Assembly: GCA_000934665.2 (NCBI GenBank)
Contig: KZ537962.1
Location: 62,001-126,000, forward strand
Length of the DNA: 64,000 nucleotides
Direction: 5' to 3'
DNA from: Catajapyx aquilonaris
Taxonomy: Eukaryota
In this document: piece after piece, positions 9,692 to 46,236 of the stretch
Position numbering within the stretch: the first letter of the stretch is position 1
Layout of the letters: every line of letters begins with the position of its first letter
Program-made: the position numbers and the translations under genes
Notes under the pieces: generated by a model
Database searches by the model: none
What the model was told of the DNA's origin: nothing
The model's input: the letters and a program-made list of their open reading frames with translations, nothing else

Positions 9692-10875
9692 ATGGCCATG
9701 GTACTACTCCGTTATTGCTTGCTGCCTATCACTATTCTAGTTCTCCTACTCAGCCTCACCTCGTTGGTCAGTACACAAGACATTGACGAAGACGAAGAGC
9801 CACCTCGGAGATTTGTCCAACCTGTGAATGTCGGTCTGGATTTCACCTTGCCCTTTGACATCTCCAACACCCTGAGGACAGTACTGGGAGGTCCCGTGTC
9901 CGTCCTAGTGGCCATCGCCTTGGGACTGGTGCTTCTGATGGGCATCCTCAATGTGCCTCTTGGACTTATCCTCGGTTGGCGAGGCATAGGAAGAGGTGGT
10001 CGAAATTCTAGGTAGGCACTGACACAAGACAACATATTGCATATTTTGCATATTTTCATTTTGCAGATGCGAAGAAGTTCATTGGAGCCGATCCCTCGAA
10101 GATTTGCAATTTGAAGATGCGTTCTTGTTTTGGAAGGATAAATCAGAGGAGTGCAGACAAAAAGTAGTGTGCCACGCCCATTCAGTCTTGGTACAAGCAC
10201 CGGCCCTTTTTCAGACAGCATTTCGACTTGTTAGGTAAGTGGCATGCGACGCTTCTAGTTTCGTTTTCACTCCTTGCAATATTTGCCAGACAGATACAGT
10301 TTCACTTCCATTTTTTCCTCTTGTGTGATTGATGTGGGAACAGATTTTTTTTACCTGGTGTAGGTCACTTTCTGTGCATCTTTTTCATGTGGTGTAGAAA
10401 GCAGTTTTATTATTTTCTCTTTTTTTGTCAAAAATAATTATTACTATCACCTACCTCAATTTATTATTGTTGCTGGTACTGGCCATCAAAACAATATTGA
10501 AAGACCCAAGATGTGGGCTACTAGTGCATTAATTTAATCGACCTCATAATGTGACCTCTCCAACTTCACCATCACTGACCTCCTTATTGACCTGGAAAAA
10601 AAACCACTCTTACTCCTTTGACCCTTGCTTCCTCAAGTCCAAAGATCAGAAATGCTGCTGCCTACAAGGAGGCCATTGTGTTCGGCCTTCGAAGAGGAGA
10701 CTGCGAGAGGAGGTTCTGGCGATGTACCAAGTCGCTTATTGACCTCCTGCCCCAAGTCACCTGCTGGAAGAAGATTCTCCAACCGTTCACTGTCAAACTG
10801 TGGGAAAAGAAGAGAGTCGCCAAGACCAAGAGGAAGAGACATTCCAGGTCGTCCACAGATAGAAGCGAGCTGTGA
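9692..10875 (+). CDS. Gene B: signal peptide + TM + DM4/DM12-like Cys domain, ~241 aa
   Basis: Exons 9692-10011, 10067-10234, 10638-10875; 726 nt in frame, both introns phase 2. TCAGT Inr at 9681. Signal MAMVLLRYCLLPITILVLLLSLTSLVST; TM VSVLVAIALGLVLLMGILNVPLGLILG; EECRQKVVCHAH; YKEAIVFGLRRGDCERRFWRCTKSL; basic tail. Confidence 0.85.
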
Positions 10876-13278: not shown

Positions 13279-15019
13279 TCAGCTGAGTAGTTCCTGCAGG
13301 CTGAGGGGGCAGTCTGGAAAGGTCTGCCTCCTGCAGAGGGAGTTGTTTGATGTGCCATGGGTGCCAAACAGCCACCTTTCTATCCATTTTGCCCTGTGAA
13401 AATGTAAACATACATTTAGAAGTGAAAAGGGTAACAGGGATCATTTCCCCCTTTTGGAGCATGATTCATTTACAGTATGTTTGTGTAGAGTTTAGAGACC
13501 AACAACTCACTGCACTCTGATGGTGTACTATACAACACTCGAATTTTATTGAAATGTTAATTTTGTGATATATCTGTGTAAAATATTTTTGGAAAGGGAA
13601 ACCTTTGGGCTACCTGAAGCAACTTATTGTGTAAGCCTATAACAATATAGTTGCTACATTTTCTTTATTTCTCTACTGAAGAGATAAATGGGAATTCTTC
13701 AAGCGAAATGTCACCACAGCATTCTGGACTGCAATTTGTATTTCTCTTAAATTTTATGACTCGTTGATTGATTATTATGTTGAGTGTCAATCCGGTTGGA
13801 ATCCCACATAATTATTGTAGCTAGCTACAATTATGTGGGAAACCTTTCTAGAATATAAATATTCACTGATGTTAGCTGATAAAAAATCATTAATGCCACT
13901 GCTGTCAAGAAAATGTCCTTCAACATTTTTTAATGTTGAAGGACATAACGACCTGTTGTACAGTGGCCTATTGTATTGCTCAAAAAGATTCATACAATTT
14001 TAATCTTTTTTGAGTGGTACAGTACACACCCGATCTATCATCATACAGTATTCGGTATGCTTGTTTTGTACCATAAAGTACGTATAAGGCCATAAAGTAC
14101 CCATAAAGTAGGTCTTTATGAGATTTTGAGATGCAAGGAATTAGATATTTTTTAAAAAAAAACTGCATATGCATGAAGTTAATGGGGGTATATAACCTTA
14201 GCAGTTCAAGGTCAGGAGTTTCCGTGTGTGAAAGTATCCCTACCGGAAAAGCTTGTCCATGACGTTGCCAAACTTGTATATAACCGGGTATCTGCGGTAC
14301 ACTTCGCACATAATCTGTTCTCTGCACTGAGGGCTCCACTCGTCGAAATGTTCGAGCGCCTCGATCAGGTCAGCCAGGTGGTGACCCGAAGACGAGTTGG
14401 CCATGAGGAGTACAGCCGCCAGACGACCCCCCCTGGCCGTGACCACCTCCGTCGGCGGGTTGGACAGGTACAGGTAAAGCACCACCACGGCCATCCCCAG
14501 GAAGCCCACCACTCCAACCAACAACCCCACAGTCACATAATTATTGAAGATGCTGTCCACCTTCTCTGTAGCCTCGGTGTCACTGGTGCCGCTTGCATCC
14601 GTCTTCTGTGTCGCACCTTCCGTCGCTTCCGGCTTGTAGTAGGCGAATTTGTACTGTACCACTGGCTCCGAAGTGTTCTTGGCCTGTTGGGTGGTGAGGG
14701 TGCTGGCCGTGGTGGACGCCTCTTCCTTCCGCGTCTGGTTCTGCTTGTTGAAGGGGTTGTAGTAGTAGTAGTTGCGGTACACCACGGAGCGACTCTTGAG
14801 GGCATTGGCGTCCAGAGGAGGCCTCGTCAGGGGCCGTCCGTGACGACGTTGCTGATTGTGTTGGCTGTGCTTACGTCGGTACAGGTTGTGATACCAGGTA
14901 CGTCCGCTCCTGGTTCCGTTGTCTCCTATGCCGGCGGAAGATGCCAAGATGCTTAGTAGCCAAATCGCCAGCACTGCGAGCCAGAAGAGCCGTTTCTTGC
15001 CCTTCGCTCCAAACATCAT
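13279..15019 (-). CDS. Gene C: signal peptide + Thr-rich region + TM + DM4/DM12-like Cys domain, ~296 aa
   Basis: Exons 15019-14244 (CAG acceptor directly before the ATG; donor CG|GTAGGG) and 13393-13279 (acceptor TTTTCACAG); 891 nt in frame. Signal LFWLAVLAIWLLSILASSA; TM YVTVGLLVGVVGFLGMAVVVLYLYLS; PQCREQIMCEVY; SLCRRQTFPDCPLSLQELL. An additional internal exon cannot be excluded. Confidence 0.75.
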
Positions 15020-18000
15020 CTGGAATGGACAGTGTAGATATTAAAGCAGATTCCTCAACCTATATTCAGAAAATGCATTTGGCCACAGTCCACTGCCAAT
15101 CAGCTCTTCCGGCAAATTGCCAGCTCCGGTATTGTTGCAGGAAGAGTTCTGATTGACCGTACTCGTTTTCCAACGGTGTGACAAAATATATATTTGGAAA
15201 CAAATTAGTAAATAAATTATATTAGCCAGGACGTCACCTCCAAAGTCGATGTTTTGGATCGTACTGTTGCGTTGCCAATATAAAGTACCGGTTGCTCCAG
15301 ACCACTTCGAATTCCGGTAATCTCCACGGGTCCTATTCGTGGAATAGCTTCGAAGGAACTCCGGACTCGTAGATGTCTCGGGTCTAAATGGACCGGAAAT
15401 TTGTGCAGCTGGAAGTGTCACTAAGGCTAGCTTAAGGGCACGAATAGCGGTTCACAGTGCCAACAGTTTGCGATAAGATTTCTTTGTGCTGCAGAAGACT
15501 CGCTGCAATACGACCGGAATCACCTGTCAAGTTATATAATCACTTTTCGGAAGTGTCAATTAGCCAAATGTTAGACCGAGGCAACACATGCATGTGTATT
15601 ATTCAGACTGTTACATGTGTGTATGCAATTAGTGGACATGTTATGATAATCTGCAGGATTTATGTGCACGGTCTTGATCTAATTGGAGGCTTTACGTGAC
15701 CTGCGTTTTTTTCTTTTCTTTCACCGTGACCTCTGCCTCGATGAATTTGGTTTGGGCTCTTTATGATGAATTCTAAAACGGTACTTTTTGGGGTCCTGGC
15801 ATTCTTTTCGGGATTACTAGGCTTTCAACCTAACAGGCATTTCAGACAGGTCGCACCTTTTCTCGGGACTGTTTTGTTCAAGGCGAACCCTCCTGATAGG
15901 ATCATTTGGGAGGTTGTCACGATTTCTCCTGTTTCGTTGGCATTGTATGGAATTCAGAGATTGCCTTTTTTTGACTGCGACGAGGAAGAGGATTTTTTTA
16001 AATGCACTTTACTAGCATATATCGTGACCACTGCTTTTTTTCCGCCAATGGTTTGATAAGCACGATTTGGCATTTGGGAAACCTGTTTGAAAAACGCAAA
16101 GATGCTTTTTATGCGAATTTGGCCTAACTAATAAAATGTAACAAAAACAGTTTGCTCTATTTACACTGCGATTACCTACCCCATACTCACCTTCGGAATT
16201 AGAATGCAAAGAATTCTTCAAAAGAGTTCAACGCGCTATTCTTCATGCACCTATACATTATACCTTCCTAATTACATAATTACAGCCGGCAATTACGTTA
16301 CCTCCCTGCACTGCAACGGCCGTGAACACGATTACTACCGAGATGGGAAAACATACAATTCCGTGAGATACACCCAGACAATTCCCCATCCCATCATTTA
16401 AAAAAGCCACGCTGCAGGCAACGCAATTTGCGCTGTCAGTCGATGATTAATTGATGTCCCATTACCAACATACCCTCTGATAGCATTATAGTACCTGTTA
16501 GTCCCCCGGATGTGCAGCAGCGCATCAAGTAAAAGCGGCTGCTCATTATATGATCCGAAATAAGAAAGTCAACATGTATGAAGCAATAGGAACAATACAG
16601 TGCATGCATGGTGGAGCTAGGGCGTGGTGTTTTTTTTTTTTTTTTTTTGGGGGGGGGGTAATAGCAGGTGTGGTTGTCTAGATGGGAAGGTAAAGAGGGC
16701 TGTGGAAATGGGAGCGATGCAGAGCGATCTGCTGCCACTGGCATATGAAGCGGTGCAGGGTAAAGGAGGCCAGAGGCGAATTGCGCACCCGATGAAAAAC
16801 CTCACCGACTGCTCCAGAAGCTGGGGCCATCGTGCTTGGTCGTAACTGCTCCGGCCATGCAGGTTGGAGACAAGGATAATCTCGTGACCTTTACCTGTTC
16901 ATCCATTACGACTGTATTAAGAGATATTAAGTATGACCTCTTGACCCGCATTATTAGACGTTTTTAGGTCAAATTATTTTTTTTCCCCATGAGCGAACGT
17001 GGCAGTTCGTCAGTTTTGACCAAAAATAGCGACTTACCTCCTGGGAGCCGTTGCTGTCCAGCTTCACATCCCAATCAGAATAGTGGACACCAGCTGTCCA
17101 TTGCACTCGCGTTACTCAAAAAATTCACAGTGGTCCTAGCAGCAGCAGGTTCCGGCCCGAGGACTCTTCTTCCTTCTCCACCCCCTTCTGATGAGGATTG
17201 AGTCTGAGACGCCGCCAACAGGAACCCATCCTGCTTTTCTGCAAAGTAGGACGGATCAGCCGCACAGGGGCTTCACCCACCTCCTCCTCTTCATTCCCCC
17301 CCTCCTTCTTCTTCAACAACTCCCCACCACCACACACACCACTGTTTCTACCGGTTATGCCGAGTCCCGAGACTGTCTCTTAGGGGCATGGGTGGGGCCA
17401 CTTGCCCTCCTCTAGCTTGGGACTCCCCTATCGCATCGGGGGGGAAATTTTGAAAGGAAAATGAAATGCCAGAAACCCGCTTGGTAGGGACCAATGTGGA
17501 GGACTTCCTGTGCGCGTGCAGGGGCAAACGTGCGGAAATGGTGACCATAAATTAGGTATCGCCTGGTTTCAGCATGCGTACCTTGAATGTCCTTTGCTTA
17601 CAGGAAGCACGCCCAGAATGAGAAGCTGTCACTGGGGTGGAATCAGAAGGAGGAGTTTGCATTGTTATTTTGTATATAGCCGTAAAAAATAACTGGAATG
17701 GAACGCATATGGTGGAATTAACATTGCGGAAATGTAGGTACGGTTTTTGTATTAATTGGGTGATTCCGGATTGGCACTTCCAGGTACAGTGTCATCATTT
17801 GCGGAATTGACTTTCTCCCAGAAGCTGTACAGGTGAGATGGAGGGCAAAGTAGGCGAGAACTGAATCAGTCTGAGGAATTCCCACCCACTCCCACGCATT
17901 TAACCCCTCTTTGATTTGCATAATGATGGTGCAGAGTGCAGTGGGGGATGTCTGGAAATGCCCATTCTTCTCGCGTCCCAATTCCCAAACGGCCTGGAAT

Positions 18001-21000
18001 TCTAGATCGGTTCAAGTCCATCGTATAAGTCGCAATAGTCGACCTCCTACTCAAATATTCCGACACACTCCGCGTGCGAAAATGGCGCAGATATTTCCGC
18101 TCGGAAGGACTCAGCACGGCTGGCCCATTACCCCAATGGCCTCAGCTTCATTAGCGGACACCAGGATCGTTACTATCAGACTCTCGGATATGATCTAAGG
18201 GGACCTGCTAAGATGGCTTGTGCTTGTTCCGGTGAAGCTTATGCAAACCATCCTGATTTCCAAGATAACGGCTCATCACCGTTAATCCAGGAAATGGGAG
18301 GAAGTGAGGCATACTGTCCGATTTTTTTTTCGGCTAGACCTGTGTATCAGGCCGATAGAACAACGGATTGGAAGAGCAGGCTTTTTGGCCAACAAGTCCA
18401 ACTCCTCATCTGCATATCAGTTATGCAGGTGAATGATGCACATTTGCATATGAGCTGTCACTATAAGGGGAACGTATGGTAGGCGTCAGGATCCATGCTG
18501 AACCAAGCTGCATATTGAACAGTTATCAGAACCTATTGTAAAATGACACTGATTTATAGCTACTGTACATCAGTTTACATTGCAATATATAGTCGTTTTA
18601 AAATTCCCCCAGCATTATTTGTGAAATGGATATGGGTCAAGATCTTGGCTGAGAAATTGAACCTGATGTTCTGCAGCAGTAACGAACTATTTGAACTACA
18701 GCTAGCCTGTTGGTGATAAGAGCATGTAGCAAGTATGTGCAACAGCTATGTAAATGGTGGGTGTTTAAATTGCATTTTCTCACAGCAGTGGGTTGTGTGA
18801 CAAGAGACGTTTAAAAGCTTACAAGTTTAGTCACAGGGCATGGTTATGGACATAGCGAAAGGTGAGATAATATCTTGATAATATCTTTGTAATAAAAACC
18901 TCACACTATTTTTATTAAAATGCGCGAATTTTAGGTGATGAAAAATTCAGACATTTCACTTACTCGGGAGTATTATAATAGTAAGTTATGGCGTGGTACC
19001 AAAATATACGCCTGTGGTCATTTATATCTCCGCTTGTAGTATTGTAGTGCTACTGTATAAGCAGGCCACTTTGGTATTATTTTTACAGGGAGATGATTAG
19101 CAATTCGGGGCTCGTACGCAAAACATAACTGTACTGCACGCAGGCCAAGTTCTGGCAACTCCCTTGCAGCAGACGATTCCGTGCCAGGCGCAGATTTTTG
19201 CGAATCCGCCATAATTGTTCGCGAATTGACTCTTGTCTAATTGGCTTGCGTTAAAATTTTTGTTGACGGAACATTAAGTACAAGTCAGTCACGAGCTGGC
19301 GAGCAAGATATCTGGTAGCACGTGGAGAGGAAACTCCGCATGAGTGCGTGCCACTTTGTCTGATGTGGTCAGCAGCCGGGAACTGACCTATAGCTCCGAG
19401 GAGGATCGGGCTGCATGACCACAACTCTTATGCGCACCTGGCAGACTTTAGGGGGACTCTTCTGTGGTGGTGGTGGTGGGGGAAAGGAGGAGAGGAGGGG
19501 CGTTTGGGTGGGGACTTCCTTACATACATTCACATATGGACCCCCAGGCGCACCATACCGGTCACGCATCGTGCCCTACACTCACTACACGGTTACGCGT
19601 GTATACGTACACGTCAGCCACTTCGAATTGGGACGCATTTGGTTATCGTGAGAAACTGTACTCTTCCCAGAGGCGGGACTCTTGTGTTTTTGTTTTCATC
19701 TCTACATGAGAAGAGATGACGTCGTCTGCAGGGTAGCCTAATTATTTAATATGGAAATGTCATGTGCATTCCATGAAATTGTGGAAAGAATTACACAGTT
19801 AACTTATTCACATTTCACGTTGAAGTAATGCAATGTGTAACAACCATATAGGGAAAGTGACTCAATAGGAGGCATGACACTGTACACATGAGTAAGGCTG
19901 CAAATCACTGTTGACTCATTTTAATGTCTCATCCACCCTCCAAAAAATGGCTGATAAATATCATGAGAATTCAAGTTTTTATTTGTACTCGACAATATAT
20001 TATACTGTGTAAGTTATATCCCTGAAGTTGAGATGGTTTTTGCAAATGCTTGAGCGGAATGATGACATCCAAATGACATGTCTGGCGTAATTCAATAAAG
20101 ATTCCAAAGGATGCGTGCAATTATTGTAGTTATTAGTCTGAATTTTGCAGTGACGCTTCATGCTCGTGACCAGCTTAAACATTTTGCTCGAGCTTTACCG
20201 AACATTTCGAGTAATATGAAACTGATTTCACCGTTATTGGGATAAGCGAATTTTTGCTGATATTTGTAGCTGACAGCATGCAAATCGACCTTTAAAACCC
20301 CTGTTGAACTTCATCCTTTCCTTCATAACGGTTCTGAAGTGGGTCACTGTCCACTGGTGCTGCTCCCCCGACTCCAGATTTAGCCCCTTGGATATACTCT
20401 TCCCGTTGATCAATTGGAGTTCTTCGGTTGCCTAATTGGACAGGATGAAAAAAGTCGCTCTCGCCTACACTCACAAATAACCAGCTCAACTGGATTTCAC
20501 ATAAAAATTAAGAATCTGATATGGAATCACACTAAATAGCAACATTCAGCTTGAAGCCGTCTCATCCAGAAAGCATTATTCCCTCGTTTTGTTATTTGTT
20601 ATTTGACAGCTGCTCCTTATAAGTAATCCATTTACAATTTTACATGAACGTTAATAATTCATATCCTCCCATATACCAATCAGCGAATGATTATGTTGTA
20701 TGATCATGTACTTGAAGTTTTGACTCTTTCACTGCAGAGATTAATATGCAAATGTCGTGTTGTTAATCGTTGAAAGGTTTTTTTTTCCATGATCCATGAT
20801 CTTGTGCACTTCATGTGCATTTCGATACGACTGCTTGCTCTCACATGACTTCCACCTACTCCTGTGCCAACCAGCACTGCTTGCACCACCTGTTGCTTCG
20901 GCATGCAACTACCTACAAATGGTTTCGTGTGTATCATGCAGAGGGGAGCACAATTCAGGATTACACAATATTACTGTTCAAGACAGTTTTCTCAAGATGT

Positions 21001-24000
21001 GCATAAAAATTTCACAAACTACAAATTTGCTAAATACGTAATAATTATTTATCATTAAGGTATTATTCATGTACTGTTTCAAACGGTGTTCGAGAAGTGT
21101 CACTTGTAACAATTCGTGAATCTGCGAAATAAAAGAAAGGTTGTATAGCTACTGGAACAGAAAGCTGATAGTGAGCTGGGTATGATTTTAAATATATTAA
21201 ACGCGTAAGAAATGTAAATGTATGCTGTAGTTTTATGCTGCTATTGTAAATAATTTCAAGTGGAAGTATTTTGCATTTTTCTGGTCCTTTACATAATTAT
21301 GTTTACTTATAAGTAAACTTATTTTAAGTGATAGTCACTCCATGAAAAAGATAATGTATTAATGTTTAGAATAACATACACCTACTGGCAGTATTACAAT
21401 ATTTTTACCTCATTTTTAAATGTACAGAACGGCTTGCACCACCACGAGTTCATATTATGCATTGCATAATTTTGCTGAAATATTGTTTTATATACCTAGC
21501 AAACCTTTGTGTTAGTTATTTAAAATGCGCACTATTGAGAAATGGTGTTATTTGGCTTGGGGCGAGTGATGATGGTTGCATTGCTTCAGGATATACGTCC
21601 TGTCGAAACATGTGTTACATAGAGTCCAGTAGGTGGCAGTAAAATATTTTAAGATACTGGCTCACCTATATGGTTTACTGTCATTTTACCGTGAGTATGG
21701 TAAATATATCATTAGTTAGTACTTATCAGTTTGCAATGATAAAATATTAACCACAGCTTTGACGGGTTGGTTTTGTACGTTGGGTTTATACGTATGCTTA
21801 GGGTCACATATTTTGAATGTAGACTTTTTATGTAGGGATCATTAAATAATGAACGAGTTCTCAATGCCATGACTGAATGAAAGGTAGGAAGGAGAAGGAG
21901 ATTATCTCACGCTATATTACGTACATGTAATGTATTGAAGTTTGAACATTTATTGTTATTATTACTGGTAGTACATTTTTATTCTTACTTTGCAATAACC
22001 CATTTTATTGGCCTTTTTTCTACAGCATAATTATATCAATTGTTTTAGTACCTGAATTTATCAAGTGTAAGTGTAACCGAGTCATATCATATCATACCCA
22101 ATGCAAGTGTCCGTAAATTCTTGCACCAGATGGCGTGCTGCAGATTGTATTGCCCTTATTTGGCTTTATTAAGTACACTGTTATTTCATGTGCTCAAATT
22201 GTGTTCACAATTTAAAAATCGTGAAATTTAATCACTAGTAACCGTGATCTTCTGATTGGTGAAGCGCCATGTCGCATATATACTTTTTTCCCTGTTCAGC
22301 AATTAGCACCTGTCAAGACCATCTTAGCGCCACAAACTCCATGATTAATGAACGAATCTCATCCGCCGAAACAGCAACGTAACCTCGAAAAGTCTAAGAA
22401 ATCCTCATCATCATCATCACGTAGACTGAACATGACCCAAACGACCCGATACGTGAGCCAGTTAGCAAAAATTCTAGCCGGGACCTTGCCCTTCCATCGT
22501 CCTGACCCAGAAAGAACTGTTTCTCACCTCTTACGCGGAAGACCTCGAGCTTTAAGGACCTTGGCATTGGGCATTCCACATATCAGCTGACCTCGTTTGA
22601 TACAGGCCTTTGCACGTGTTGTGCATCTGGGATGTTTTGATTGGCTGTTCAAGGAGGGTGGGAGCTGGCCAGAGTTCAGGTCGGTCCGTCCCAGCAACTG
22701 TAATTGTTACCTTTCAAGCAGGTTTGGCCGGATTTTTTCCAGGGGGGTGGGTGGGTGGAAACAGCGGAGTGTCTCCCTACCTGTTCAACCTACAAAAAAA
22801 TGGGAGAGGGGAGGTGTTGACGTGGTCCAGTTGATGGTAACCTGAGGGACTACTTTTTTATTGCATAATTATTCTGGTCGAGTTTGCCCCAGAAACGGGA
22901 GATGCACATTTTTGTAGGTGTGACCATAAGTAATGAGACAGATTGTTTAAATTACAATTGAGGTTTTATTATTGCGTTGTAGAGAAAGGAATAGCAAAAA
23001 AATACTAGAGGAGGTTTTCAGTTCTGTACAAATTTATTTCTGTGGTGGATCACATACTTCACATTGCAGTCACTTTCCAATATCATTCGGCGAGTGTACA
23101 ATAATTGGAGCATCACGAGAAACATCGGTAGTGATCCTATCCGCTAAATAATTATCAGGCACGTGCAAATTCTACATAAATAACCGCTTAATAAATATTA
23201 GGCTGAAAAAGATATTTAAAAAAAAAACAGATAACAAACTGTATTTCAGCAACAACCACACGGGCTTGGAATTGGCCTTGTTACGTAACATACTCTACCC
23301 TGAGAACAGACGTTATTAATAATTATTATAATATAATTACTGAATTAAAAAGGGGGACACGACACAGGAGACGAAGCATAGTTATTCGACATAGGTAAGC
23401 GTCAAGTTCGTCAGTCAGTTAGTCAGGTAGTATACGTCATAGTCTCATGTCGGCATGAAAAAACAACACAAATAGTCATAGGCAAAGTGACTTACTGGCT
23501 TTCAGTAACTGGAATCCGTCGTATGAAAATGAAAGAATCGGTCTGTTTTTTTTAAAGCTGTTGAAAATGTGTACCGTCTGTCACAAAGTTGAGTATAAGC
23601 ACCGTCAGAGGTCAGTGTCCGAGCCCGAAAAAAGGACCCGTTTGAAGTACATAAGGTAGACAAGTATGTGAGTCTCAGTCTCTTCGTAGTGTCCGCCACG
23701 AACCGCAGTCACGTGTGGTTCAAAGTCCGTCGGCATGTCAATCACAAGTCGAGTCATTTGTCAGGTGGAAAAAAAATAGCACGGCCAAATAAATAAAATG
23801 ACAATAAATATTATTTTCTTTGTATGTCCAGCCAGCCTGGAATCCGCGAGATTGGTCATGAAAATTACTAGAACAATATTTTAAAAAAAAACAAAAGAGT
23901 CATCCCTGCATGGAGAACCACCACTAACCGTCCTTTTTCCAGCCAGCAACACTCGCTCCCTTCTCCAACTCTGGCTGGATCCGCAAAATTATGATTTTTT

Positions 24001-24238
24001 TTTTTTTTCATTTAAAATCGTGTGTCCTGTCCATCATTGAGCAAAAGAGGGTTGTTGGGGGAGACTTAAAAAAATGGATAGGGGAAGTCTGTCGGACTGC
24101 CAAGGTTGACGTCAGCAGTGTGTCGTACGCTTCTTTTGGTTGTGAAAGTTGGGGGTGGGGGGGGGGGGGACAGAAAAAGATTGTTGAGGAGAGGTTTGGT
24201 CTGCTTGAGTCGACGGACCAAATTTTTGAATGACCTTC

Positions 24239-25180
24239 TTATTTCCTCAGGTGGTTGTTGGTCTGCTTGTTGTACTTCCGGAACAGCTCCTTGACGGAGA
24301 ATTGGCAGGTGGTGTACATCTCCCCGCAATCCTTCTGCATGCTGCGGCCCTTACGAGCAGCGTCGTTGTATTCGGTCACCAACTGGCGGATTGGATCAGG
24401 CATGCTGACTCCATCGAGGTATTCCAAATAGCTGCAAGTCGCAAGAGGTGTGTTAGCAGAAGTCAGTACGAACTAGAGAGACACTGTATGGGACGTACCT
24501 CATGGCGCGTGCCATCTTGCGTGCGGTGGGTCCCAGTTCGTCTTGGTTCTGGTGCAGCTCGCATACCAGGCGCTTCTGACAGTCCATGCGCTTCAGGTCG
24601 AACTTGCGGTAGATTTCCTCCATCATTGCGATCCAGTCGAGGATCTTCAGGTTGAAGTACGAGTCAGAGTCATCGAGGGACCTGGGGAAGACCAAAAACA
24701 GCTTTTGGTTAGAAAAGAAACTTACTTGTGGAGATGGAACAATGAAACAGTTTGGCCATGACTGTTCTCCAGCGCGATTCACGGTGCAACACACCTGTAC
24801 TGCCCGTAACTATAATATCCTCCTGGGCCATACGTATTTTCTTCCTTAAAAAGTGCTGTGCCTATGGCCGTGGCCGCGAAGAACAGGAAATATAGGGCTA
24901 CTGCTAGAGCACCCAAGAGTAGAACGAAGCCTATTCCGCCCAGAACCAGCGAGACGTTGTGGCTGCTGAAGATGGTGGACAAGGCGTTGTTGGCAGCGTT
25001 GGTGGTGGCACCAATGGCGCTGGCTGCTGACTGACCAGTGGTGACGATCAGGGTTCGGGAGTCCTTCTCTTCCGATGTCAAAGGGTCAACGCGACGTATC
25101 TCCTTATCTTCAGCCACCGATGCTCCAAAAGTCACGCCGAGGATGGCGATCACCACTACCAACAGAGGCTTGAAAGCCAT
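24239..25180 (-). CDS. Gene D: signal peptide + TM + DM4/DM12-like Cys domain, ~253 aa; exons 2-3 are the candidate constant exons
   Basis: Exons 25180-24795, 24681-24499, 24431-24239; 762 nt in frame, phase-2 introns. MAFKPLLVVVIAILGVTFGASVA; TM VSLVLGGIGFVLLLGALAVALYFLFFAA; MDCQKRLVCELHQ; EYNDAARKGRSMQKDCGEMYTTCQFS. TATA-like CATAAAAA at 25271-25264. Confidence 0.9.
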
Positions 25181-26999
25181 GTTCTTCAGCGCTTCCTAGT
25201 CTTCCTTCCGACTCAATTTTTAGCCCCGATGAGTCTGAGCTAACCCTGACCCTTCTCCAGGGGTTTTTATGTCTTTCTTTAGCCCCCCCTCCCCCCATCC
25301 TGAAACCCACCTTTGGGTGGGGGTCCTAAGAGCCACCTCCGCCCTTTCTTCCTCGCCACAATCCCTGACCTCCAAATACCTGCGATCCAATAGGAACCAG
25401 GATAGTTTCCCCTACTTATTAGCCCCTTTTTGAGACCGGACGCCTTATCTCTTGCACACATAACCCACTTAGGTGCTAATAACAAGTTAAAATTGAATCC
25501 CCACCCCCTGTGGACCAATTTTAATTTTTATGCAACTAGACCCATTGTCAGGGGATGTCGCGATGGGGGTCTCTCGAAGTAGACCTACACCCAAATGTCA
25601 CACCCACCTGCAACGACTCAGCCTCCAATAAGGTGGAAGGAAAGCGTATTCATATGCCGGATGCTAATTTCATAGGCATACACCTGTGAGGCCGATACAT
25701 CAGTTTAATGTAACACTATTTGCATTGTCCCCACCACACAAAAAAATGGGAGAAGGGCGTTGGAATGTATATAACTGTCGAGCCTAGTTCGCAATGTCTT
25801 GTCACCCGGAGATCAGTCCACACCCGATAAACGTAAGACACGAAAGCGGAACGGAAGCGGAAATGTCACAAGATCAAAGATGCTGAAAAAGCTACTCATC
25901 TTCGCTTTCGTTTTCGGTGCCCACTTTCGTTCGTAGTGACCGACCTCCTTTCATTGAGCGCGAAAGCTACCGGAGCTATTCACTTTTGCTCATCTCCATC
26001 AGTGTTATCCGCCATACCCTGAAGGAACATCTTGTTCCGAGTTGGTCACGTTTCCTTTTCGAGTATCCTACTGAGGGAAATAGTGGACCTTGAGGAGGTC
26101 AAGGGCGAGCTTGAGATGGTAAACAAGTGTAGCTTTGAGAGAGTGGAGGTACAACTAATGGATTTCTCTGGTTATATGCGGTTAAGTTTCCCTTTCGAGG
26201 GTGTAAGATTTTGATTGAAAAGGAAAATCTAGGCGATGCTTTCCAATAGTGCAAGTGCAAATTAGGAAAGCGGATTTGTAGCCGTAAAAGATGTTGGAAA
26301 CGGCACGCATGACACGACATGTCTTCTTGGAAGCGACAATTAATATTCAAAATAGGGAGGACCTGCTGTGGCTTAAGGAGGTCATAAGGTCTTTGTCCCA
26401 GCAACTGTCAAGACCGGTCTAAAACCCACTTCCCTGTCTACCTATCCCCTCTTTTTTTTCCTGATTCTCTTCCACCTTGAGGCCAAGGCCATGACCGCAA
26501 TCCTCAACCTTCCCCTTCTGCCGGTTTACAAAAAAAGGCAATGGCCCCACCCCCTCCAGGTGAACACAAAAAAACAACCCCCAGTACCTGTCATGAAAAC
26601 TGCCAGAAAGGCACAAATCAACCAAGTAGCAGTTATACAAGTGTTACTTTTCTTACGTAAAAATGGTCGGATAAAAAGGTACCGTTGGATCATCTTTTTC
26701 CTCTCGATCGTGACATGTGTTCGGCGCCATAAATTTTTGCGAACAAAAAAGTAGGAAAGAACGTGTTTGGAACGCCGAAGACACGCGGTAGATAATATTC
26801 CATTGTAACGGGTAAATCTGATGTCGGGCCATTCAGAACGGGGTATTACTAATGAGCTGGTTTAGCATAGCATTAAAAGTGTACCGGCGGGAATCCAAAC
26901 ACCGCGTAGCTTGAGGCGGTATGCGTGAAGATGCTGGTTGGGTTGCCTAACCCGCAGGATGGATGGAGTTTTACCTGTTCCCTTGAGAGCTAGTCTTAC

Positions 27000-27439
27000 C
27001 TCTTGTAGGCCTTGTGGCCATAATCTCCACCAGGAGAATGGTTGTAGAGGTAGCTGAGGTAGACCATGAGAGCCATAGCCGCAAAGATAAACGACATTCC
27101 GACCCCGAGGGAGGAATAATCCATCCCATAACCACCGCCGCCGCCGCCGCCACTAGGAGATTGGTACAAATGGTGCTCCTGGAAGTACTTGTGGTGGACG
27201 CTCCCCCCCTTCTTCTTGCTCCGACCCTCGCCTATCCGGGCCTGCTCCTCCTCGGCCGAGGCCAGGATCTTGCCCAACAGCCCCTGCCGGGGGTTCTCTG
27301 CCCCTTCGCCCTTGCTTCGGCCAGCCTCGTCGGAGGCTACCACCAGCCGGTCCTCCGTGCTGGTGGAGGCGGCCGAGCAGGCCACCACGACGACTAGGAG
27401 TCCCACCGCTCCGGCCAGCCACCAGCCACTCCGACTCAT
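27000..27439 (-). CDS. Exon E: signal peptide + GRSK motifs + His/Gly/Tyr-rich linker + TM; probable alternative first coding exon of the D locus
   Basis: MSRSGWWLAGAVGLLVVVVACSAA...GEGRSKKKGG...LGVGMSFIFAAMALMVYLSYLY...DYGHKAYK, ending in the strong phase-2 donor AG|GTAAGA (26999). A polypyrimidine tract + CAG acceptor lies 48 nt upstream of the ATG (27488). Confidence 0.8.
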
Positions 27440-27530
27440 GGCTTTTTATCTGACTCTACTCTGTGTACACCCTGAACCTCGAGGTTGCTGGAAAGAATAA
27501 AAAGGGAAAAAGCCATTTAGCTAGACCCAC

Positions 27531-27964
27531 CTGTACTTGTGGCCATAGTCGTAGTCGTGTCCGCCACCGCCGCTTCCGAAGGACAGATAAGCCATGTAGC
27601 AAATGAGGGCCATGGCGGCTATTATGAACGTGACCCCCGCGCCCATGCTGAGCATATCGCCGTCGACAGCGTACACGTGCTGGTATCCTCCGCCGCCGCC
27701 GCCTCCATGGTGGTGCGTGGGTGGTTCGTGGTAAAAGAACTCGTAGTGGGAGCCCCCCTTCTCCCCACCCTTTTTCTTTTTGCCGCGTTTGGAGCGACCC
27801 TCCTCCACTTCGGTGCTACGGACCGGCGCCGTGTCGGCGCCGTCGCCTTTGCTGCGTCCTTCTCCCACCGAGGCATTGTCGTTCTCCGTCGACGATGCCG
27901 CCGTCAGAGCCGTCGTTACCGCCAGCAGGAGGAGGAGCACCGCACTGATGCGCAGGGGCTTCAT
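27531..27964 (-). CDS. Exon F: paralog of exon E; probable alternative first coding exon of the D locus
   Basis: MKPLRISAVLLLLLAVTTALTAA...EEGRSKRGKKKKGG...MGAGVTFIIAAMALICYMAYLSF...DYGHKY, ending in the phase-2 donor AG|GTGGGT (27530). Clear similarity to E in the GRSK motifs, poly-Gly, TM and DYGHK tail. Confidence 0.8.
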
Positions 27965-29338
27965 TGTGAAGGTGCAGGTTCGAAGGGATGGTTGGACCGT
28001 GTAGATATATGGCAAGGGGGAAGATGGGTGGGAGGATTGACGATTCGCTTCCCTGTTCCCAGAGAGAGAAACCGTGACCTAGGTCAGACTCGCCTTCAGG
28101 CGTCAGGATGGAAGGAGGGAGGGAGGCAGGGGGCGGGGTATCTGCACGGAAGCGCCACATGAAGCGCCGAAGCAACCGCTATTACCTTGTTTTTTGTTTC
28201 CTTACCAGGTCGGCCACATGTCGGTTCTGACCTGGCAGGAAAACAACGAAGGAGCACGCAGCTACCCAAGACCCACTTCAAATGAAAAAGTTCACTCTCT
28301 AGACTATGTAAGGGTATAAGGAGAGTTATGATGATATTATTTTTTTTTGGACGGTGATTCCGTCTCGCCGGTACATCGCTCTCTCGGGGGCATCGTTTCA
28401 GCACAAGGAAACTCGGTAGCTGCGCTCTCCTCCTACAGTCTCGCAGTATTCAGACACAAGACGGCTGCTTCGGCACTTCACTAGCACTTCCGTGCAGATT
28501 TGCAAAGGGGGAGGTGTACAAGCATACACACTTTGGGGCTCAAAGGGTCGGGTGTTGTTAAGCCATGTATGAGAAGGGCTAATTAAAGCAATAGAGCCTA
28601 ACGATATTGTAGTTTTCCAGCAAGAGATAGAGGTAAACAATGTGTTAAATCTTACGGTTTGGGTGACTCCTGTGTTGGTTGGGCAACAATCTACACCACA
28701 GTGGAGTTCTGCTTTCGAGCTAATCTTGAAATTTACGTTTCTCCCTTTTATGTTCTTTTTTTTTCTCTTTGAAAACCCATTTGGTGTTAACGATCTTTTA
28801 AAAATTATTTGACCCGCGGTTTCTCACTTCAAAAAGATTCAATTTAAAACAATATTTTAAAAAAATACATGTGAATCTAAGGTGTAATTGTGGACAACGA
28901 ATTTGGCGTTGCAATTGAACATTAGCATGTGTAACTGCGAGTTTACCGCTTAAAAACGCACCTAGGTAATTCGTGTACACAATCTCACCTGCCAGAGCCA
29001 TCTGTAGTAGAAATTCCCGCCTTTGCCCCCGAATTTACACTTTGCATAATCATTATGCTGATCATCATCATGGCAATCACCAGCACGATTTTCTACTGTT
29101 TGATGGCGCTCCTCCTACCCTATACCGTCAAACGTAGCACAATCACAAAAAATGAACCAAGTATATAAAAAAAAGTAGAGGAAATCCAAGAAGCACATCA
29201 CACCAAGTTGCTAAACACGACAATAGCCTGAATACTGCGAGACTTGGTACTGAGAAGCCGTGGTCTTCAGACAACAAGTGAGTAGAATCCACACTGAAGT
29301 GGAGGTGGTTGCCTACCTTAGTCCGATTAGGGACTCAC

Positions 29339-29416
29339 TGAACTCCCAAAGTACACTTGACCGAGAGAACTGCGAAGGGCGAACTGGCTGGTCCTGAGCC
29401 AGTTCTGGCTTTTATA
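29339..29416 (-). promoter_or_regulatory. Distal TATA/Inr promoter and short non-coding first exon
   Basis: TATAAAA at 29416-29410; CCAGTT Inr with its A at 29385 (31 nt from the TATA start); ATG-free 47-nt exon ending in a GTGAGT donor at 29338. Confidence 0.6.
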
Positions 29417-32400
29417 TCTCGTCCCAGACTCACCTGAGATCCTAGTTCCTTAGGGTGCCCTGGATGGTCAAGGTTCCATGTCACTGTGGCAGGTCAAAGG
29501 ACGTTCCAAGAAGTATCCGTCGGGAGTGGGGCCGGTTTTCCGTAATTCTCGAGAAGAGGAGGGAGGTGGGGGATGATGGGGGAATGGGGTGGATCAGTGG
29601 GGGGATACGAGGCTGTTGGCTCCTTAGTGGCCCAGCCGCACCAGGTCATGGAAAGAAAACCTTGCCGCGGTGCTCATTTGCATATATCCCTCGCCAATAG
29701 TGAAAAGCCTGATGCTGGCATCATTCCAGACCATTTTTTCAGGAAAGGCCCTTCTCTATACTGCCTGTTTTTTTATTTTGGGTTTTTTGTTGTAATACGT
29801 TTACGTAGCGATAAAGTCTGCTCGGTGGAATCACCCGGGGGTAAAAAGTGTGAGCATTACAGGTTGGACAGGTAGGCACGTAACGCTAGTCACAATTGAA
29901 CCGCGCCAAATGACCTTAATTGACGGTGCTCGGAATCACGCAGGTTTACGAGAATGTGTCGTCTTGCACATATCCACTTCCTCTTGGAGGATCCCACCCC
30001 CNCCACCCTCCATACACATCCAGCCGCTTTCCATCAGACGCCTATCCTCGTTTTTCGGTGCCCTCCAGCTACCTTCAACCCTACTTTTTCAGTGTGACAT
30101 TTTCTGCTTGAATGGAGGATGCGGATTTTTTTTTTTTTTGAATGATGTCCCTTAAAGATTCGCAGTGTGTGTGTTTTTTTTGTTGAGTACGTAACTTACA
30201 TGGTGAGGGAGAGGGATTGTTCCAGTTTCGCCAAAACATGCGAACGTGAGTTTCAATTTTTCCTCTCCTCTCCACTTCCATCAGCGAAGGCGGCAATGGA
30301 GAGTTTGAACGAAAGCAAAATGTGTGGAGACCACAGACCCGACCGGATGATGACTCGGCCATTGACGCAATGCTGACCTGCAATGTACTATAGGCAGATT
30401 TCTTGGGTCTTTCATTTTTCTAATAGCGACGTGTTTCAGAATTTGCGAAAACCATTGTTTTGGTCACTGATTCATTATAGGTTTGCAGAACTGCTGTTGC
30501 TTTATTTAAACATCTTGATGAAAAAGAAATTATGATGCATTTGTTACACTTGTATGACATATAGGCTTCTATACAGTAGTAGCATCAAAGCAAATCAGAA
30601 CTGGTATATTTTTAAAATTAAAAACTTTGTTCAAGTTGGTGGAAATTATGCAGAGAGGTAAAAATGAAGAATTGATTACTGAAAAGCTGCATTTTCGACG
30701 TAAATGTATTAAATGTCGCGGATTTTGTAACCTTTCTGCACTAATTTTCAGTCATGTACTGTACGTCTGTACGGAGCATTTGGCCCAGAAGGACAGCAGA
30801 CGTTGATATGCGAAGGCATGCGTGAACAGGGTCACTTGTCGCCATCTGCAGCTGATGGAAAACCATAATTCTCCTCCATTTTTCCTCTGACCCTGATTTT
30901 TGTCACCCAGCGTTTTTTTAAAACAAGAAGGGATGGTGGCGTTACCACTCCAGAACCCTCCAAATTAAAATTCTTTACTTGCATAACACGTACATGTGCT
31001 TTAATGCCTACTTCATACGTACGTGCAGAATAAGAAAGAAACCTTCTATTCTTTTTGTAGTCACCCTTTACCTGCTAATGATACACCGAATGTCTAAATA
31101 ATATTTACAGAAGTTTTGTTAATATGTTCTGTGCTGTTTTTAAAATTGTAAACGAAGTACATCATGGGCAACGAATATACGCATAATTTGATACGTGTGT
31201 AAACATTTGGCACACAAAAAATGTATCATGCTCTGGAAACAGCTTAGCATGTGCTGTAGTGACCAAATACTCCGGTGTGTATTTAGGAACTGGCCGTAAA
31301 ATTAATTCCATGAACTGCCCTGTGTTTTAAAAAAAATCAGATATGGAATACGAGCACGCAAAGGTTCATTATAATTAATTCTTCCCACAAGTTATCCAGC
31401 CCATCTTTAAAATGTAAAAGATTCCTGTTACTTGTGCCAGGTGACCTATTGTTTTCCAACGACGATTATTACCGCAAGGTCTCATATCAAGTCCCGATCT
31501 GCACTCCTTGGCACTTGTGCATATGTTTGTCTGATAATAATTTGTGAGAATAAGGTAGTTTAGTAGGTTAATGACGGCTGCGATACACAGCCATTCATGT
31601 TAAGGCCAACAGGATGCTGGCGTGTAGTTTTGAATGGAAGCGGAGAAAGATGCGTCGGGGAAATGGGGCCTCAGCTTTCACTTCCGGCGTCTGTGCAGGT
31701 ACAGGGTCGGCGAACCCCAAGGTCTGGGTCACCCATCGACTGCCGGCTGGGGCCCTAAACCCTTAGCACGCTCACGTTCCTTCCTCTTTCAGTCACTCTA
31801 ATTGCGATCTCATATACCATGGAAGCGGATTTTCTTCAGCACCCACCGTGCGATCATTTTTTATAAGCGCAAACCGAATCAGACGGATGGAATCTGGAGC
31901 AAGTGCACCATATGTGTAGTCTGATCTACACTTGCAGAAATGGAAATCAGAGGGTGGAATATGGGGGAATAATTTAAAGGTCAAAAAGGGGGGTATGCTT
32001 GATAGAATAAGGGCTGAGATCCAACGTAGTAAAATTGCAATGAGAGCATCACTGGCCATATCAGTAACGTACAGTACGTACAGTACGTATAGTTTATTTG
32101 TGACTCATGAAAAAAATTGAATTGCTTCAGTTTTTTAAACCGTCGGGAACTTCGGCTCTTGTTCTGTGGAGTTGTTCAATTCTAGAGTGCATTTGGAACT
32201 TGATTGACTTGTCAAATGTAAAATACGCGTGGGTAATGCACTGAGCATGAAATGTGTTTGCTTTACTGGCACGCACAAACCAGTGAAATCCGCTACTTGA
32301 CACACCAGTATGCACCAACGCTTTTTTGGTTAAAACTATATGTTTGAATGTTATTTTTTGTTATAATGTACTACCTGGTGGTAATGCACCCTATACATAT

Positions 32401-43923: not shown

Positions 43924-46236
43924 CTACTTAGGATCTTGTTCAAATTCTTTTAAAATTTTCGCCCTACGCCTTTTCGTAGTGGCCCGTCCTTCCTCTTCTT
44001 CATCTTTGGATACTGAAACCATTTCATCAAATACATTGTTGGCAGAGTTCAGAAAGGTGTGAAGAGACACAGGGAGAAGGTTTATGGTCGGAAGCAACGA
44101 ATCCGGACTTTTCCCGAAAGGAAATTTAACAATATCGCGTATAAAACTAGGACGTTGTGTCGTTGTTGTAGTAGTCGTCGTCGTCGTCGTTGTCGTCGTT
44201 GTCGATGTGCTTGTGGCTTTTTTGTCATCATCGGGAAGGTCCATTCTCTTTAAATGTCCTGAAGTGCTATGGCTGTTTATTCCATCCTCTTCGTCCTTGT
44301 GAACGAAATCCATCCTCCGGTCAAAAAAGGGAGCGTCCAGGTCAAAGGTATCAAATGGATCCTTAGGATGCGGAAACAGATTTGGAAAAAACATAATACA
44401 GGCAGTGGATATGATGAATATGACCCCACCCACCATAAGAGAAGCCATGACTCCATTGGGGATGCCAGCCACTGCTCTATGAAACAAACTTTTTAAGTAG
44501 CTTGAAAGGGAATCGGTACCAAATAAGGCAGCAGCTGTAGGAAATGGATCTGGGTCAGCATAAAACAAGCTGTGGTCTTCGGGTCTGAAGAAGTCAGAAA
44601 AGTCCATCTGGGATGCAGCTGGCAGTGGTGGCATGGCTGAAGACATAGGCCTGTGAGGTGCTACTGCTGATGGCATTGGTCTCTGTGAGGCCATGGGATG
44701 TGGTAGGGGTGGAGGGATGTACGGAAGGAATGGCTCTCGTGTAGGTGGCCGTTGAAACGGATTCAGGACCCCTGGGTACGTTGGATCATTGGGGTAACTG
44801 GTAGGGTACTGTTGGTACATGACTGCTTTGGATTGGTATGGATGATTTCTGGGGTATGGAACAATGCCTGGTTGGTACACTGGGCCATTTTGGTACGCTG
44901 CAACAGGCTGCTGGTATGACGTTGTGGGTGGCTGGTAAGGAAAGCTGTTTTGGTACGTTACAGGTGGGTATGCAGGGCTTGGTCGGAAACTTGCGGGTGT
45001 AGGAGGCTGGTATGAATGATTGTTTGCGGTAGCAGGTGCACCAACAGAGTTTTGGGGGTAACTTGTGCTCAATGATCCATGCTGATCTATTGTTGTGTCT
45101 GGATCAGACCATCGCGCTGTGTCGGCGTGTTCCACTGAATAGTAATCCTGGTATCCTTCATTATAATCAACCGGATAATTGTGGGTGTACTCAATATGAT
45201 GCACGTTAGGATCGGTTCCTGATGGCTGAATAATTACACTTGGAGTCCTAGTAGAATGGAAGTTTCTGGGAATCCTGTCAGGTTCTTCTTCGACTGGAAC
45301 TTCATCCACTTGTACTTCCTCCATTTGAGCTTCCTCCACGGATATTGGATCACTGTTGGTCGGAGGTAACGTTGTCCACATTGGAGGCCTCATGTACCTG
45401 GTTCGGTTCATTCCTTTTTTGTCCGTATAAACCATTTTTAATAGGTGGACTAATGATGATGTGAGATTGAGCATTTGCGATTGTTGCTGGTAATTAAGTA
45501 CAGGACGCTCTTTGATATCTAAGCCAGTTATTACTTTTGCTGTGGCTGGATTCGCAATGATTGTTTTCCTGAGCACTTCTAGTTTACTAGGAATGGCCGA
45601 AGAGAGAACGTGGTCCGTGTCTGACGATGCCAGGTCCTGATCAACGACAGGCATCTTGACACCCATAATAGGCGGGCTTAAAGTGACTCCTCGATTATGC
45701 AAAATAGTTTTTAGCCTGTCATAGTTGATACTTCTGGAGCCATTATTCCGACGAGCCCATTTGAGGAGCCTCTTGGACAAACGACGTGTGAGGTTGGTAT
45801 AGTTCTTCCTGTGCTGGGAATGACCCACTGGCAGGACGATTGACACGAGTTCTTCCTGGTGTGTGGACGAACTGGATGGACTTGTCTGCCGCCGCCGCCT
45901 GCTATGCCCCACTGCGCCGTTAGTTGGCCGCCTTTCTGTGCTGCTGGTTGCTTCTTCAGGTGAATAAGGCTTGGTGTGATCGCAGAGTGGGGTTGGCCAA
46001 GGGTCCAGAGGGGATCCCAGCTGGTCCTCCACCGGAAGTCCGGTCGACATGGAAGCAGACAGTTGGTCATTTCTGGGGCTTTCTATCTGGGCCGGCTCGA
46101 GTCCACTGGAACCGCTGGTTGTTTCTCCACTTCTGAATGTCCTTGCTGAAGGCGTTGTCGGGTCATTTCGATTTATTACGGTGCACGATGAGGTGGAAAG
46201 TAGCAGCAGGAGTGATGCGACGGCGATGAATCTCAT
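43924..46236 (-). CDS. Uncharacterised ~770-aa signal-peptide, low-complexity (Ser/Thr, Tyr-Pro-Gln) single-TM protein
   Basis: Uninterrupted 2.3-kb ORF. The true start is inferred at ATG 46236 (MRFIAVASLLLLLSTSSC), 9 nt after a TTTTCAG acceptor (46246); candidate upstream UTR donor AG|GTAAGT at 46938. RRRR basic site, YQP/YP repeats, TM VMASLMVGGVIFIISTACIMFF, poly-Thr. Confidence 0.85.
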   Translation of the reverse strand: MRFIAVASLLLLLSTSSCTVINRNDPTTPSARTFRSGETTSGSSGLEPAQIESPRNDQLSASMSTGLPVEDQLGSPLDPWPTPLCDHTKPYSPEEATSSTERRPTNGAVGHSRRRRQTSPSSSSTHQEELVSIVLPVGHSQHRKNYTNLTRRLSKRLLKWARRNNGSRSINYDRLKTILHNRGVTLSPPIMGVKMPVVDQDLASSDTDHVLSSAIPSKLEVLRKTIIANPATAKVITGLDIKERPVLNYQQQSQMLNLTSSLVHLLKMVYTDKKGMNRTRYMRPPMWTTLPPTNSDPISVEEAQMEEVQVDEVPVEEEPDRIPRNFHSTRTPSVIIQPSGTDPNVHHIEYTHNYPVDYNEGYQDYYSVEHADTARWSDPDTTIDQHGSLSTSYPQNSVGAPATANNHSYQPPTPASFRPSPAYPPVTYQNSFPYQPPTTSYQQPVAAYQNGPVYQPGIVPYPRNHPYQSKAVMYQQYPTSYPNDPTYPGVLNPFQRPPTREPFLPYIPPPLPHPMASQRPMPSAVAPHRPMSSAMPPLPAASQMDFSDFFRPEDHSLFYADPDPFPTAAALFGTDSLSSYLKSLFHRAVAGIPNGVMASLMVGGVIFIISTACIMFFPNLFPHPKDPFDTFDLDAPFFDRRMDFVHKDEEDGINSHSTSGHLKRMDLPDDDKKATSTSTTTTTTTTTTTTTTTQRPSFIRDIVKFPFGKSPDSLLPTINLLPVSLHTFLNSANNVFDEMVSVSKDEEEEGRATTKRRRAKILKEFEQDPK

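Follow-up and report, generated by a model that had tools for sequence, protein, structure and literature searches.

In UGT1A, the clustered protocadherins and chelicerate sDscam, every variable exon has its own promoter and none is known to carry a 3′ splice site; mutually exclusive exon clusters are found in Dscam1, Mhc and alpha-tropomyosin, where exons 2 and 3 are kept apart by steric exclusion. Here, we examined a 64,000-nucleotide (nt) stretch of the Catajapyx aquilonaris genome (assembly GCA_000934665.2, contig KZ537962.1, positions 62,001 to 126,000; hereafter the window), the minus strand of which holds three tandem 5′ exons (D1, E and F), each coding for an N-terminal module with signal peptide and transmembrane (TM) segment, upstream of a single pair of exons (C1 and C2) that code for a cysteine (Cys) domain. 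Our findings make it quite likely that one DM4/DM12 gene uses D1, E and F as alternative 5′ coding exons in front of one C1/C2 tail, and we propose, at roughly even chances, a sub-mechanism of leader and promoters. Such a locus resembles UGT1A, the protocadherins and sDscam in that tandem exons for signal, outer and TM parts are joined to shared constant exons (PMC4835542 for sDscam). The outside is varied and the inside kept in all of them; the number of variable exons differs, about 10 to 100 there against three here.

The coding exons of the locus are as follows, in window coordinates:

25180–24795, minus strand: variable exon D1, 386 nt, ATG start; signal peptide, Ala/Thr/Asn-rich stretch, TM and Tyr/Gly tail
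27439–27000, minus strand: variable exon E, coding part, 440 nt, ATG start; signal peptide/TM architecture as in F
27964–27531, minus strand: variable exon F, coding part, 434 nt, ATG start; signal peptide, EGRSK-type basic low-complexity stretch, Gly7, TM and GHKY tail
24681–24499, minus strand: constant exon C1, first DM4/DM12 half, motif C-QKRLV-C; phase-2 acceptor and phase-2 donor
24431–24239, minus strand: constant exon C2, second DM4/DM12 half, motif DC-GEMYTT-C; ends in a TAA stop

These coordinates, given in an earlier note on this DNA, all hold on a minus-strand reading of 24000–29600 with a script check, as do its statements that D1, E and F all end AG|GT in phase 2 and that one set of Cys-domain exons, the single C1/C2 pair, lies downstream in the block. 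The donors read CAG|GTGTGT (D1), GAG|GTAAGA (E) and CAG|GTGGGT (F), each in phase 2, and all three lengths leave a remainder of 2 after division by 3; the acceptor of C1, ...CTTCCCCAG (CCCCAG), has a branch-point-like CTAAC at −31, and the third base of the split codon opens C1. Joined in script to C1 and C2, the three exons give open frames of 253 (D1), 271 (E) and 269 (F) amino acids (aa), the sizes for E and F being those that the earlier note had predicted, and the C-terminal Cys domain, 124 residues, is identical in the three predicted products. The introns to C1 measure 113 nt (D1), 2318 nt (E) and 2849 nt (F). Read-through past the donor meets a stop after 4 (D1), 1 (E) and 3 (F) codons; for F that stop lies 82 nt before the ATG of E and no AATAAA or ATTAAA occurs before 25709, which leaves no space for a separate 3′ end behind F. 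A hydrophobic N-terminal segment and a second TM-like segment are present in each of D1, E and F. In the mechanism that we propose, each variable exon would supply its own ATG, the signal peptide, a short outer stretch, the TM helix and a juxtamembrane tail rich in Tyr and Gly, and splicing of its phase-2 donor to the one phase-2 acceptor of C1, at 24681, would yield a protein with a variable front and the one Cys domain.

Exons E and F go back to an old duplication, and purifying selection has kept both as constrained coding exons. Their proteins are 48% identical (phmmer E about 1e-16 to 4e-16), and over 130 aligned codons the synonymous difference is saturated (pS 0.73) with pN at 0.385, the identity at codon positions 1, 2 and 3 being 0.62, 0.63 and 0.35; it is this saturation, together with the excess of identity at positions 1 and 2 over position 3, that speaks for age and constraint, and the level of identity and the codon-position pattern show that the similarity is not due to chance. 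The GC content at third codon positions (GC3) is 0.76–0.77 in E and F and 0.78–0.82 in the constant exons, and the GC of the E-to-D1 interval is 0.47. In the ESM Atlas, E scored at best 0.85, to unnamed clusters; this has low recognition value and was not used. A 19-nt likeness of 23681–23699 to the tail of F was also considered, and on reading the region no exon was found there.

The closest relatives of the locus come from barnacles. A profile of the four exons of the window that encode a first Cys half (Cys1) found one 216-aa protein (P0001), whose constant region led to 26 proteins at E≤0.001 among 39 candidates, the named ones from two barnacles; the window constant region is 51–57% identical to 25 of these homologues and 42% to the other. 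RefSeq lists isoforms X1 and X2 for Pollicipes pollicipes LOC119102165 and isoforms X1, X3 and X4 for Amphibalanus amphitrite LOC122385256, and three further Amphibalanus proteins form an isoform set. An identical C-terminal suffix of 121–124 aa is seen in all ten barnacle isoform pairs, with N-terminal parts 29–46% identical; the common suffix starts S-(A/G)-(S)-DPY and aligns with R|SLDDSDSY of the window. Among all 26 proteins, constant parts are at least 95% identical in 12 of 325 pairs, and the variable parts of these pairs are 29–46% identical in seven, 0.33 in one and 0.78 in another, the remaining three involving a model of 136 aa whose N-terminus has 17 residues. Between barnacle loci and species, variable exons of one type share 0.45–0.64 identity, against 0.28–0.46 for different types within a locus; like types being thus more alike than neighbours in one locus, the multi-exon layout is older than the divergence of the two barnacle loci and species. 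The barnacle genes have two or three alternative N-terminal exons, each with signal peptide, short outer part, TM and Gly/Ser/Tyr tail, and they agree with the window in the residue and the phase (2) of the junction, C1 starting G-TCN. However, a DPRFLF-N-x-S/T motif is common to their three types of variable exon, which recur between loci and between species, whereas E and F, with EGRSK repeats, His-rich sequence and Gly7 before the TM, have no detectable counterpart among them.

The same layout can be followed in cDNA-like metagenome contigs. A scan with the homologue alignment gave 12 loci (L001–L012), 7 of which carry, uninterrupted, the whole coding sequence (CDS) or, failing that, one full variable exon with C1 attached; two contigs end in A-runs after AATAAA, as cDNA would. 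In a first set, L001 and L002 have different variable exons, but their constant CDS and 3′ untranslated region (UTR) agree at 99.8% over 969 nt, and the two part exactly where C1 begins, at its first base. In L009 the L001-type exon is present in unspliced form, with the acceptor ...cccgcag| 9 nt before its ATG and the donor GC|GTACGT; after a further 548 nt, made up of intron and a 5′UTR piece, there follows a third exon type, which is joined to C1 by splicing and has ...catttcag| 8 nt upstream of its ATG. L010 consists of intron plus C1. In a second set, three exon types (L003, L007 and L006) stand on one constant region, 99.3–99.9% identical over about 1 kb (constant CDS and 3′UTR; L003 and L006 99.9% over 1011 nt, L003 and L007 99.3% over 1024 nt), and here too the contigs part at the first base of C1. 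L003 and L007 begin with a common 42-nt 5′ leader of 100% identity and diverge after ...CCCAG, the third type has a pyrimidine-rich acceptor 11–30 nt before its ATG, and a 1467-nt intron separates that type from C1 in L011 and L012. Acceptors 8–30 nt upstream of the ATG are present in all three barnacle-type variable exons, the junctions to C1 are in phase 2 in six of six cases, and C1 starts G-TCN here too. In relatives, alternative ATG-bearing exons are therefore spliced to one shared constant exon pair, and one leader serves two or more of them. The spacing is not the same, the F donor lying 43 nt from the E acceptor in the window against roughly 540 nt in the barnacle-type L009. The contigs of the third type retain 0.9–1.9 kb of unspliced upstream sequence (L002:1–1936, L006:1–874, L012:1–1400). 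The first 1400 nt of L012 differ from L011, the rest being 99.4% identical, and this difference could be an insertion polymorphism in the intron or a mis-assembly there.

As to the family, DM4_12 is described as a motif of about 115 aa near the C-terminus, of unknown function and with four conserved cysteines (PMC12825958). The domain is split by an intron in the window; scored singly, C1 (18.9 bits, E 0.0026, profile positions 6–36) and C2 (15.9 bits, E 0.022, positions 61–86) each stay below the PF07841 gathering score of 22 bits; six constant-region homologues score 26.9–33.5 bits over positions 6–86, and 23 of the 26 constant-region matches carry a precomputed PF07841 assignment. The four family cysteines are present, as C-x5-C in C1 and C-x7-C in C2, and are invariant in a 24-sequence homologue alignment. 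BLASTP against the barnacle homologue P0017 gave 67% identity for C1 (E 3e-26) and 48% for C2 (E 3e-18); C2 alone, set against longer proteins, gave no candidate. The ESM Atlas cluster nearest to P0017 is named ‘Protein anoxia up-regulated’ (fau; score 0.91, 200 of 256 features), with PF07841 in 91% of its members, and this likeness to the Drosophila fau cluster of DM4/DM12 proteins, being one of atlas features shared with P0017, is a lead, not an alignment. Judged by these similarities, the locus would encode a DM4/DM12 (fau-like) membrane protein. Its constant Cys domain would be cytoplasmic, given the predicted signal peptide and single TM. A homologue profile found nothing significant among PDB chains (best E 0.3–0.97), hence no solved relative by sequence.

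Whether E and F might have Cys exons of their own can be judged against the other family members of the window, in which six signal/TM exons stand against four exons of the Cys1 type (one each in A, B, C and D, the last being the gene formed by D1 with C1 and C2). The paralogs are:

8267–9091, plus strand: paralog A, DM4/DM12-like, four coding exons; signal peptide and TM in two separate exons
9692–10875, plus strand: paralog B, DM4/DM12-like, three coding exons
15019–14243 and about 13282–13440, minus strand: paralog C, TM and first Cys half in one exon; second Cys exon separate

Each of A, B and C has its own Cys exons and is about 18–24% identical to D in the first Cys half; read by hand, the TM-to-Cys1 intron is in phase 2 in A, B and D, and C has no such intron. 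A window-wide scan for ATG-initiated open reading frames (ORFs) that have a hydrophobic segment at the N-terminus and another resembling a TM found ten, namely B, C, D1, E, F and five unrelated ones. Local hidden Markov models (HMMs) built from the paralog exons were run against all 3185 six-frame ORFs of at least 12 aa. The Cys1 model matched nothing beyond the four known exons (next best E 0.99, elsewhere) and nothing in 25181–27000, and the best new match of the model for the second Cys half (Cys2; E 0.08) was the previously unseen exon of paralog C at 13282–13440. In leave-one-out runs on the same 3185 ORFs the omitted exon was the best non-training ORF in four of four cases for Cys1 and two of three for Cys2. 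HMMs from the 26 external homologues matched C1 (E 3e-28) and C2 (E 4e-21) and nothing else, the next values (E 0.17 and 0.81) falling outside the interval; a DNA-level search of 25181–30000 for decayed copies of C1, its intron and C2 met only chance matches of 10–13 nt; and profile scans of the minus strand over 15040–27000 gave no Cys-exon candidate except C1 and C2. The earlier note, which had seen no C-x5-C exon between E and D1 in the parts translated by eye, was thus right about the interval in six-frame scans with both local and homologue-derived models. Because local models, leave-one-out runs, homologue models and DNA search agree, we conclude that the 27 kb downstream of E and F contain no private Cys exon for either. 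Pfam gave no DM4_12 match on 61 minus-strand ORFs of 25113–29673, a weak scan that tells little because only one of six control ORFs from paralogs A–C scored DM4_12; it gave nothing relevant on 45 plus-strand ORFs of the block, and Rfam gave no match at E≤0.1 over 22000–31000.

Two short stretches in the block recall parts of the domain. A 13-aa ORF at 28946–28984 (minus strand), DCVHELPRCVFKR, upstream of F and between stop codons, fits the DC-x6-C-x-F of the second Cys half; it is the sole match of the Cys2 model in the block, at chance level (E 1.4–3.0), and could be a relic. Inside D1, out of frame, 24957–24995 (minus strand) reads RCQQRLVHHLQQ, near the C-QQRLV-C-ELHQ motif of the relatives' constant exon (E 0.18–4), probably by chance.

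How the variable exons are reached by transcription was approached through motif matches, which gave the following candidates and structures:

29416–29409, minus strand: candidate upstream promoter, TATAAAAG TATA box, with an initiator (Inr)-like CCAGTT, A at 29385, 31 nt downstream (motif scan)
29385–29317, minus strand: candidate non-coding leader exon, 69 nt, ending AAG|GTAGGC; by analogy with the L003/L007 leader
28052–27965, minus strand: candidate 5′UTR part of exon F, 88 nt; moderate acceptor tttctctctctgggaacAG|G, 11/16 pyrimidines
27487–27440, minus strand: putative 5′UTR part of exon E, 48 nt; acceptor tttccctttttattctttccAG|C, 15/16 pyrimidines; in-frame TAA 3 codons before the ATG
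25271–25236, minus strand: candidate D1 promoter, CATAAAAAC, with TCAGAC about 34 nt downstream (motif scan)
28140–28500, minus strand: foldback, about 360 nt long, within the putative leader-to-F intron; minimum free energy −163 kcal/mol, z −10.8, 0/100 shuffles as good

The earlier note had assumed one promoter for each variable exon, in the manner of UGT1A and the protocadherins. By motifs this feature is present in D1, weak in F (ATATATC at 28010, a TATA-like alternative) and without a usable instance in E, whose sole TATA-like motif, 11 nt before the ATG, could not serve because transcription beginning about 30 nt farther on would start within the coding sequence. E has, instead, the strongest acceptor of the block, at 27487, and the assumption is not borne out for this exon; it is also at odds with the relatives, where two variable exons stand on one leader and all three have acceptors. 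For D1, a motif scan found no pyrimidine-rich acceptor between promoter motif and ATG. The leader and the two UTR pieces hold no ATG in 205 nt, against 17 in the 1264 nt between the leader and the F acceptor. At roughly even chances, then, D1 would be a true first exon with its own TATA/Inr-like promoter, and E and F would be internal, mutually exclusive exons following the shared non-coding leader at 29385–29317, driven by the TATA/Inr pair at 29416/29385; a pure alternative-promoter arrangement is possible for F. The choice between E and F would be mutually exclusive because the E acceptor lies only 43 nt after the F donor, less than the smallest of seven measured family introns in the window (55 nt), and because the frame obtained by joining F to E in script stops after 161 residues.

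The foldback in the putative leader-to-F intron has a near-perfect basal stem of about 45 bp and lies roughly 175–535 nt upstream of the F ATG, with no second copy in the window; it could be a hairpin RNA, a structured intron or an insertion resembling a miniature inverted-repeat transposable element (MITE). There is also a perfect 17-nt inverted repeat (28437–28453 and 29228–29244, 774 nt between arms), for which we estimate a chance expectation of about 0.001 in 7 kb; one arm is 72–88 nt into the intron after the candidate leader and the other inside the foldback. The arms could be the ends of a transposon, or they could pair in the RNA and so draw the donor of the leader towards F and E. 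A search of the rest of the window for repeats of two intervals of the block gave a single 25-nt match. A perfect consensus donor, CAG|GTGAGT, occurs at 29434 (minus strand), 18 nt ahead of the 29416 TATA box; no further exon upstream, to which it might belong, was found.

When set against the described systems, the locus departs from the UGT1A, protocadherin and sDscam type through the 15/16-pyrimidine acceptor that E carries 48 nt before its ATG, and the barnacle exons do so through their acceptors and shared leader; as far as motifs tell, two defining features of that type, a promoter for each exon and acceptor-free variable exons, are missing. Mutually exclusive clusters offer another comparison. 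E and F are tandem and homologous, similar in size (440 and 434 nt), of the same phase and placed between a candidate common upstream exon and a common downstream exon, and a donor-to-acceptor gap too short for splicing would enforce exclusivity, double inclusion leading to a premature stop. Unlike the exons of such clusters, however, the alternative exons here carry the start codon and the signal peptide, and D1 seems to have its own promoter. A small cluster of mutually exclusive exons describes the layout no less well than does the protocadherin, UGT1A and sDscam type. A bolder and rather doubtful proposal is that we are dealing with an ancient module-swapping system of fau-like DM4/DM12 proteins, common to this organism and barnacles and possibly wider, a hybrid of protocadherin and Dscam in which one exon has its own promoter and two sterically exclusive ones are fed by a leader, the choice being perhaps steered by RNA pairing through the 17-nt repeat and the foldback. 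If true, cells could show different outer/TM modules on one cytoplasmic Cys domain.

The earlier note had read the region as one locus with at least three isoforms and an identical Cys domain. The lack of private Cys exons, the constraint on E and F and the same junction residue and phase in barnacle genes and contigs support this reading well, if indirectly, and it is from the layout of the barnacle relatives that we infer the use of the D1, E and F junctions to C1 in this organism. Several observations weigh against it. A profile of E and F found no match at E≤0.001 among 1.84 billion representatives, and the two exons show no resemblance to the barnacle variable-exon types beyond TM-level similarity, so that their use is argued by analogy, not by orthology. 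Their introns (2.3–2.8 kb) are far longer than the seven measured family introns of the window (55–410 nt), one further family intron, in paralog C, being roughly 0.8 kb. The F acceptor is mediocre, and the leader and both promoters are motif matches. ATTAAA motifs at 25709 and 25525 could terminate an E/F transcript before D1, and with stops 1–4 codons past the donors stand-alone products of 147 aa are formally possible. The last two points would also suit a reading in which E and F are small genes by themselves, or one bicistronic transcript, and make signal-peptide/TM proteins without a Cys domain, their donors unused. We hold this to be distinctly improbable, given that the F stop lies so close to the E ATG with no poly(A) signal between them, that both exons end precisely at the conserved phase-2 intron of the family, and that a Cys domain follows such an exon in every relative found.

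Among the other explanations, the one that is merely unlikely would make the same products from variable exons that are all true first exons, each with its own promoter and a cap-proximal donor spliced to C1. The TATA/Inr-like pair upstream of D1, with no acceptor before its ATG, and the weak ATATATC before F agree with it, and sDscam is an arthropod example of the principle (PMC4835542); yet for E the start would fall inside the CDS behind the strongest acceptor of the block, and the relatives place acceptors just before the ATG of three variable exons, two of them on one leader. Very improbable is a splicing of E and F to Cys exons of their own that are too diverged for the scans or lie outside the window. 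The insensitivity of Pfam at the exon level and the one Cys2 exon in three missed on leave-one-out leave some room for such exons, but all four Cys1 exons were recovered in that way, the minus strand over 15040–27000 is empty except for C1 and C2, and the exons in question would have to sit beyond the whole D gene. A reading of E and F as the dead remains of first-exon duplicates, for which the absence of homologues outside the window might be quoted, is practically excluded, because frames of 146 and 144 codons have stayed intact after synonymous sites became saturated; the excess of identity at codon positions 1 and 2 and a GC3 like that of the constant exons, far from the GC of the E-to-D1 interval, tell against it as well. 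Alternative 5′ exons of one DM4/DM12 gene thus remain our preferred reading of D1, E and F.

Outside the block and the paralogs, the window contains:

911–4895, plus strand: NOMO-like gene with several NOMO and carboxypeptidase-regulatory-like domains
43927–46344, minus strand: 806-aa Pro/Tyr/Thr-rich ORF, no Pfam match
49815–52020, minus strand: MFS_1-like transporter gene, a neighbouring gene

We found no published description of this architecture in the literature on DM4/DM12, on barnacle alternative first exons and on fau, supplements being outside the scope of that search. The claim of the earlier note that the layout is undescribed for the family therefore stands as regards papers, but not as regards databases, RefSeq listing such isoforms for barnacles. 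As the barnacle relatives already show the layout in transcripts, the present case is a gene-structure call and not a new principle. Callers that are naive to ORFs or exons would list E and F as orphan genes of one exon each, overlooking two of the three products, and the barnacle data provide a template for modelling such loci. With three exons in about 5 kb, the locus is also a compact test case for the mutual exclusion of alternative ATG-bearing exons. For DM4/DM12, an arthropod family of unknown function, it presents a case in which the outer/TM half is swapped and the Cys domain retained. This swapping, together with the conservation of variable-exon types between barnacle loci and species, suggests that the N-terminal module sets specificity, be it of partner, compartment or tissue, and that the Cys domain acts as a common effector.

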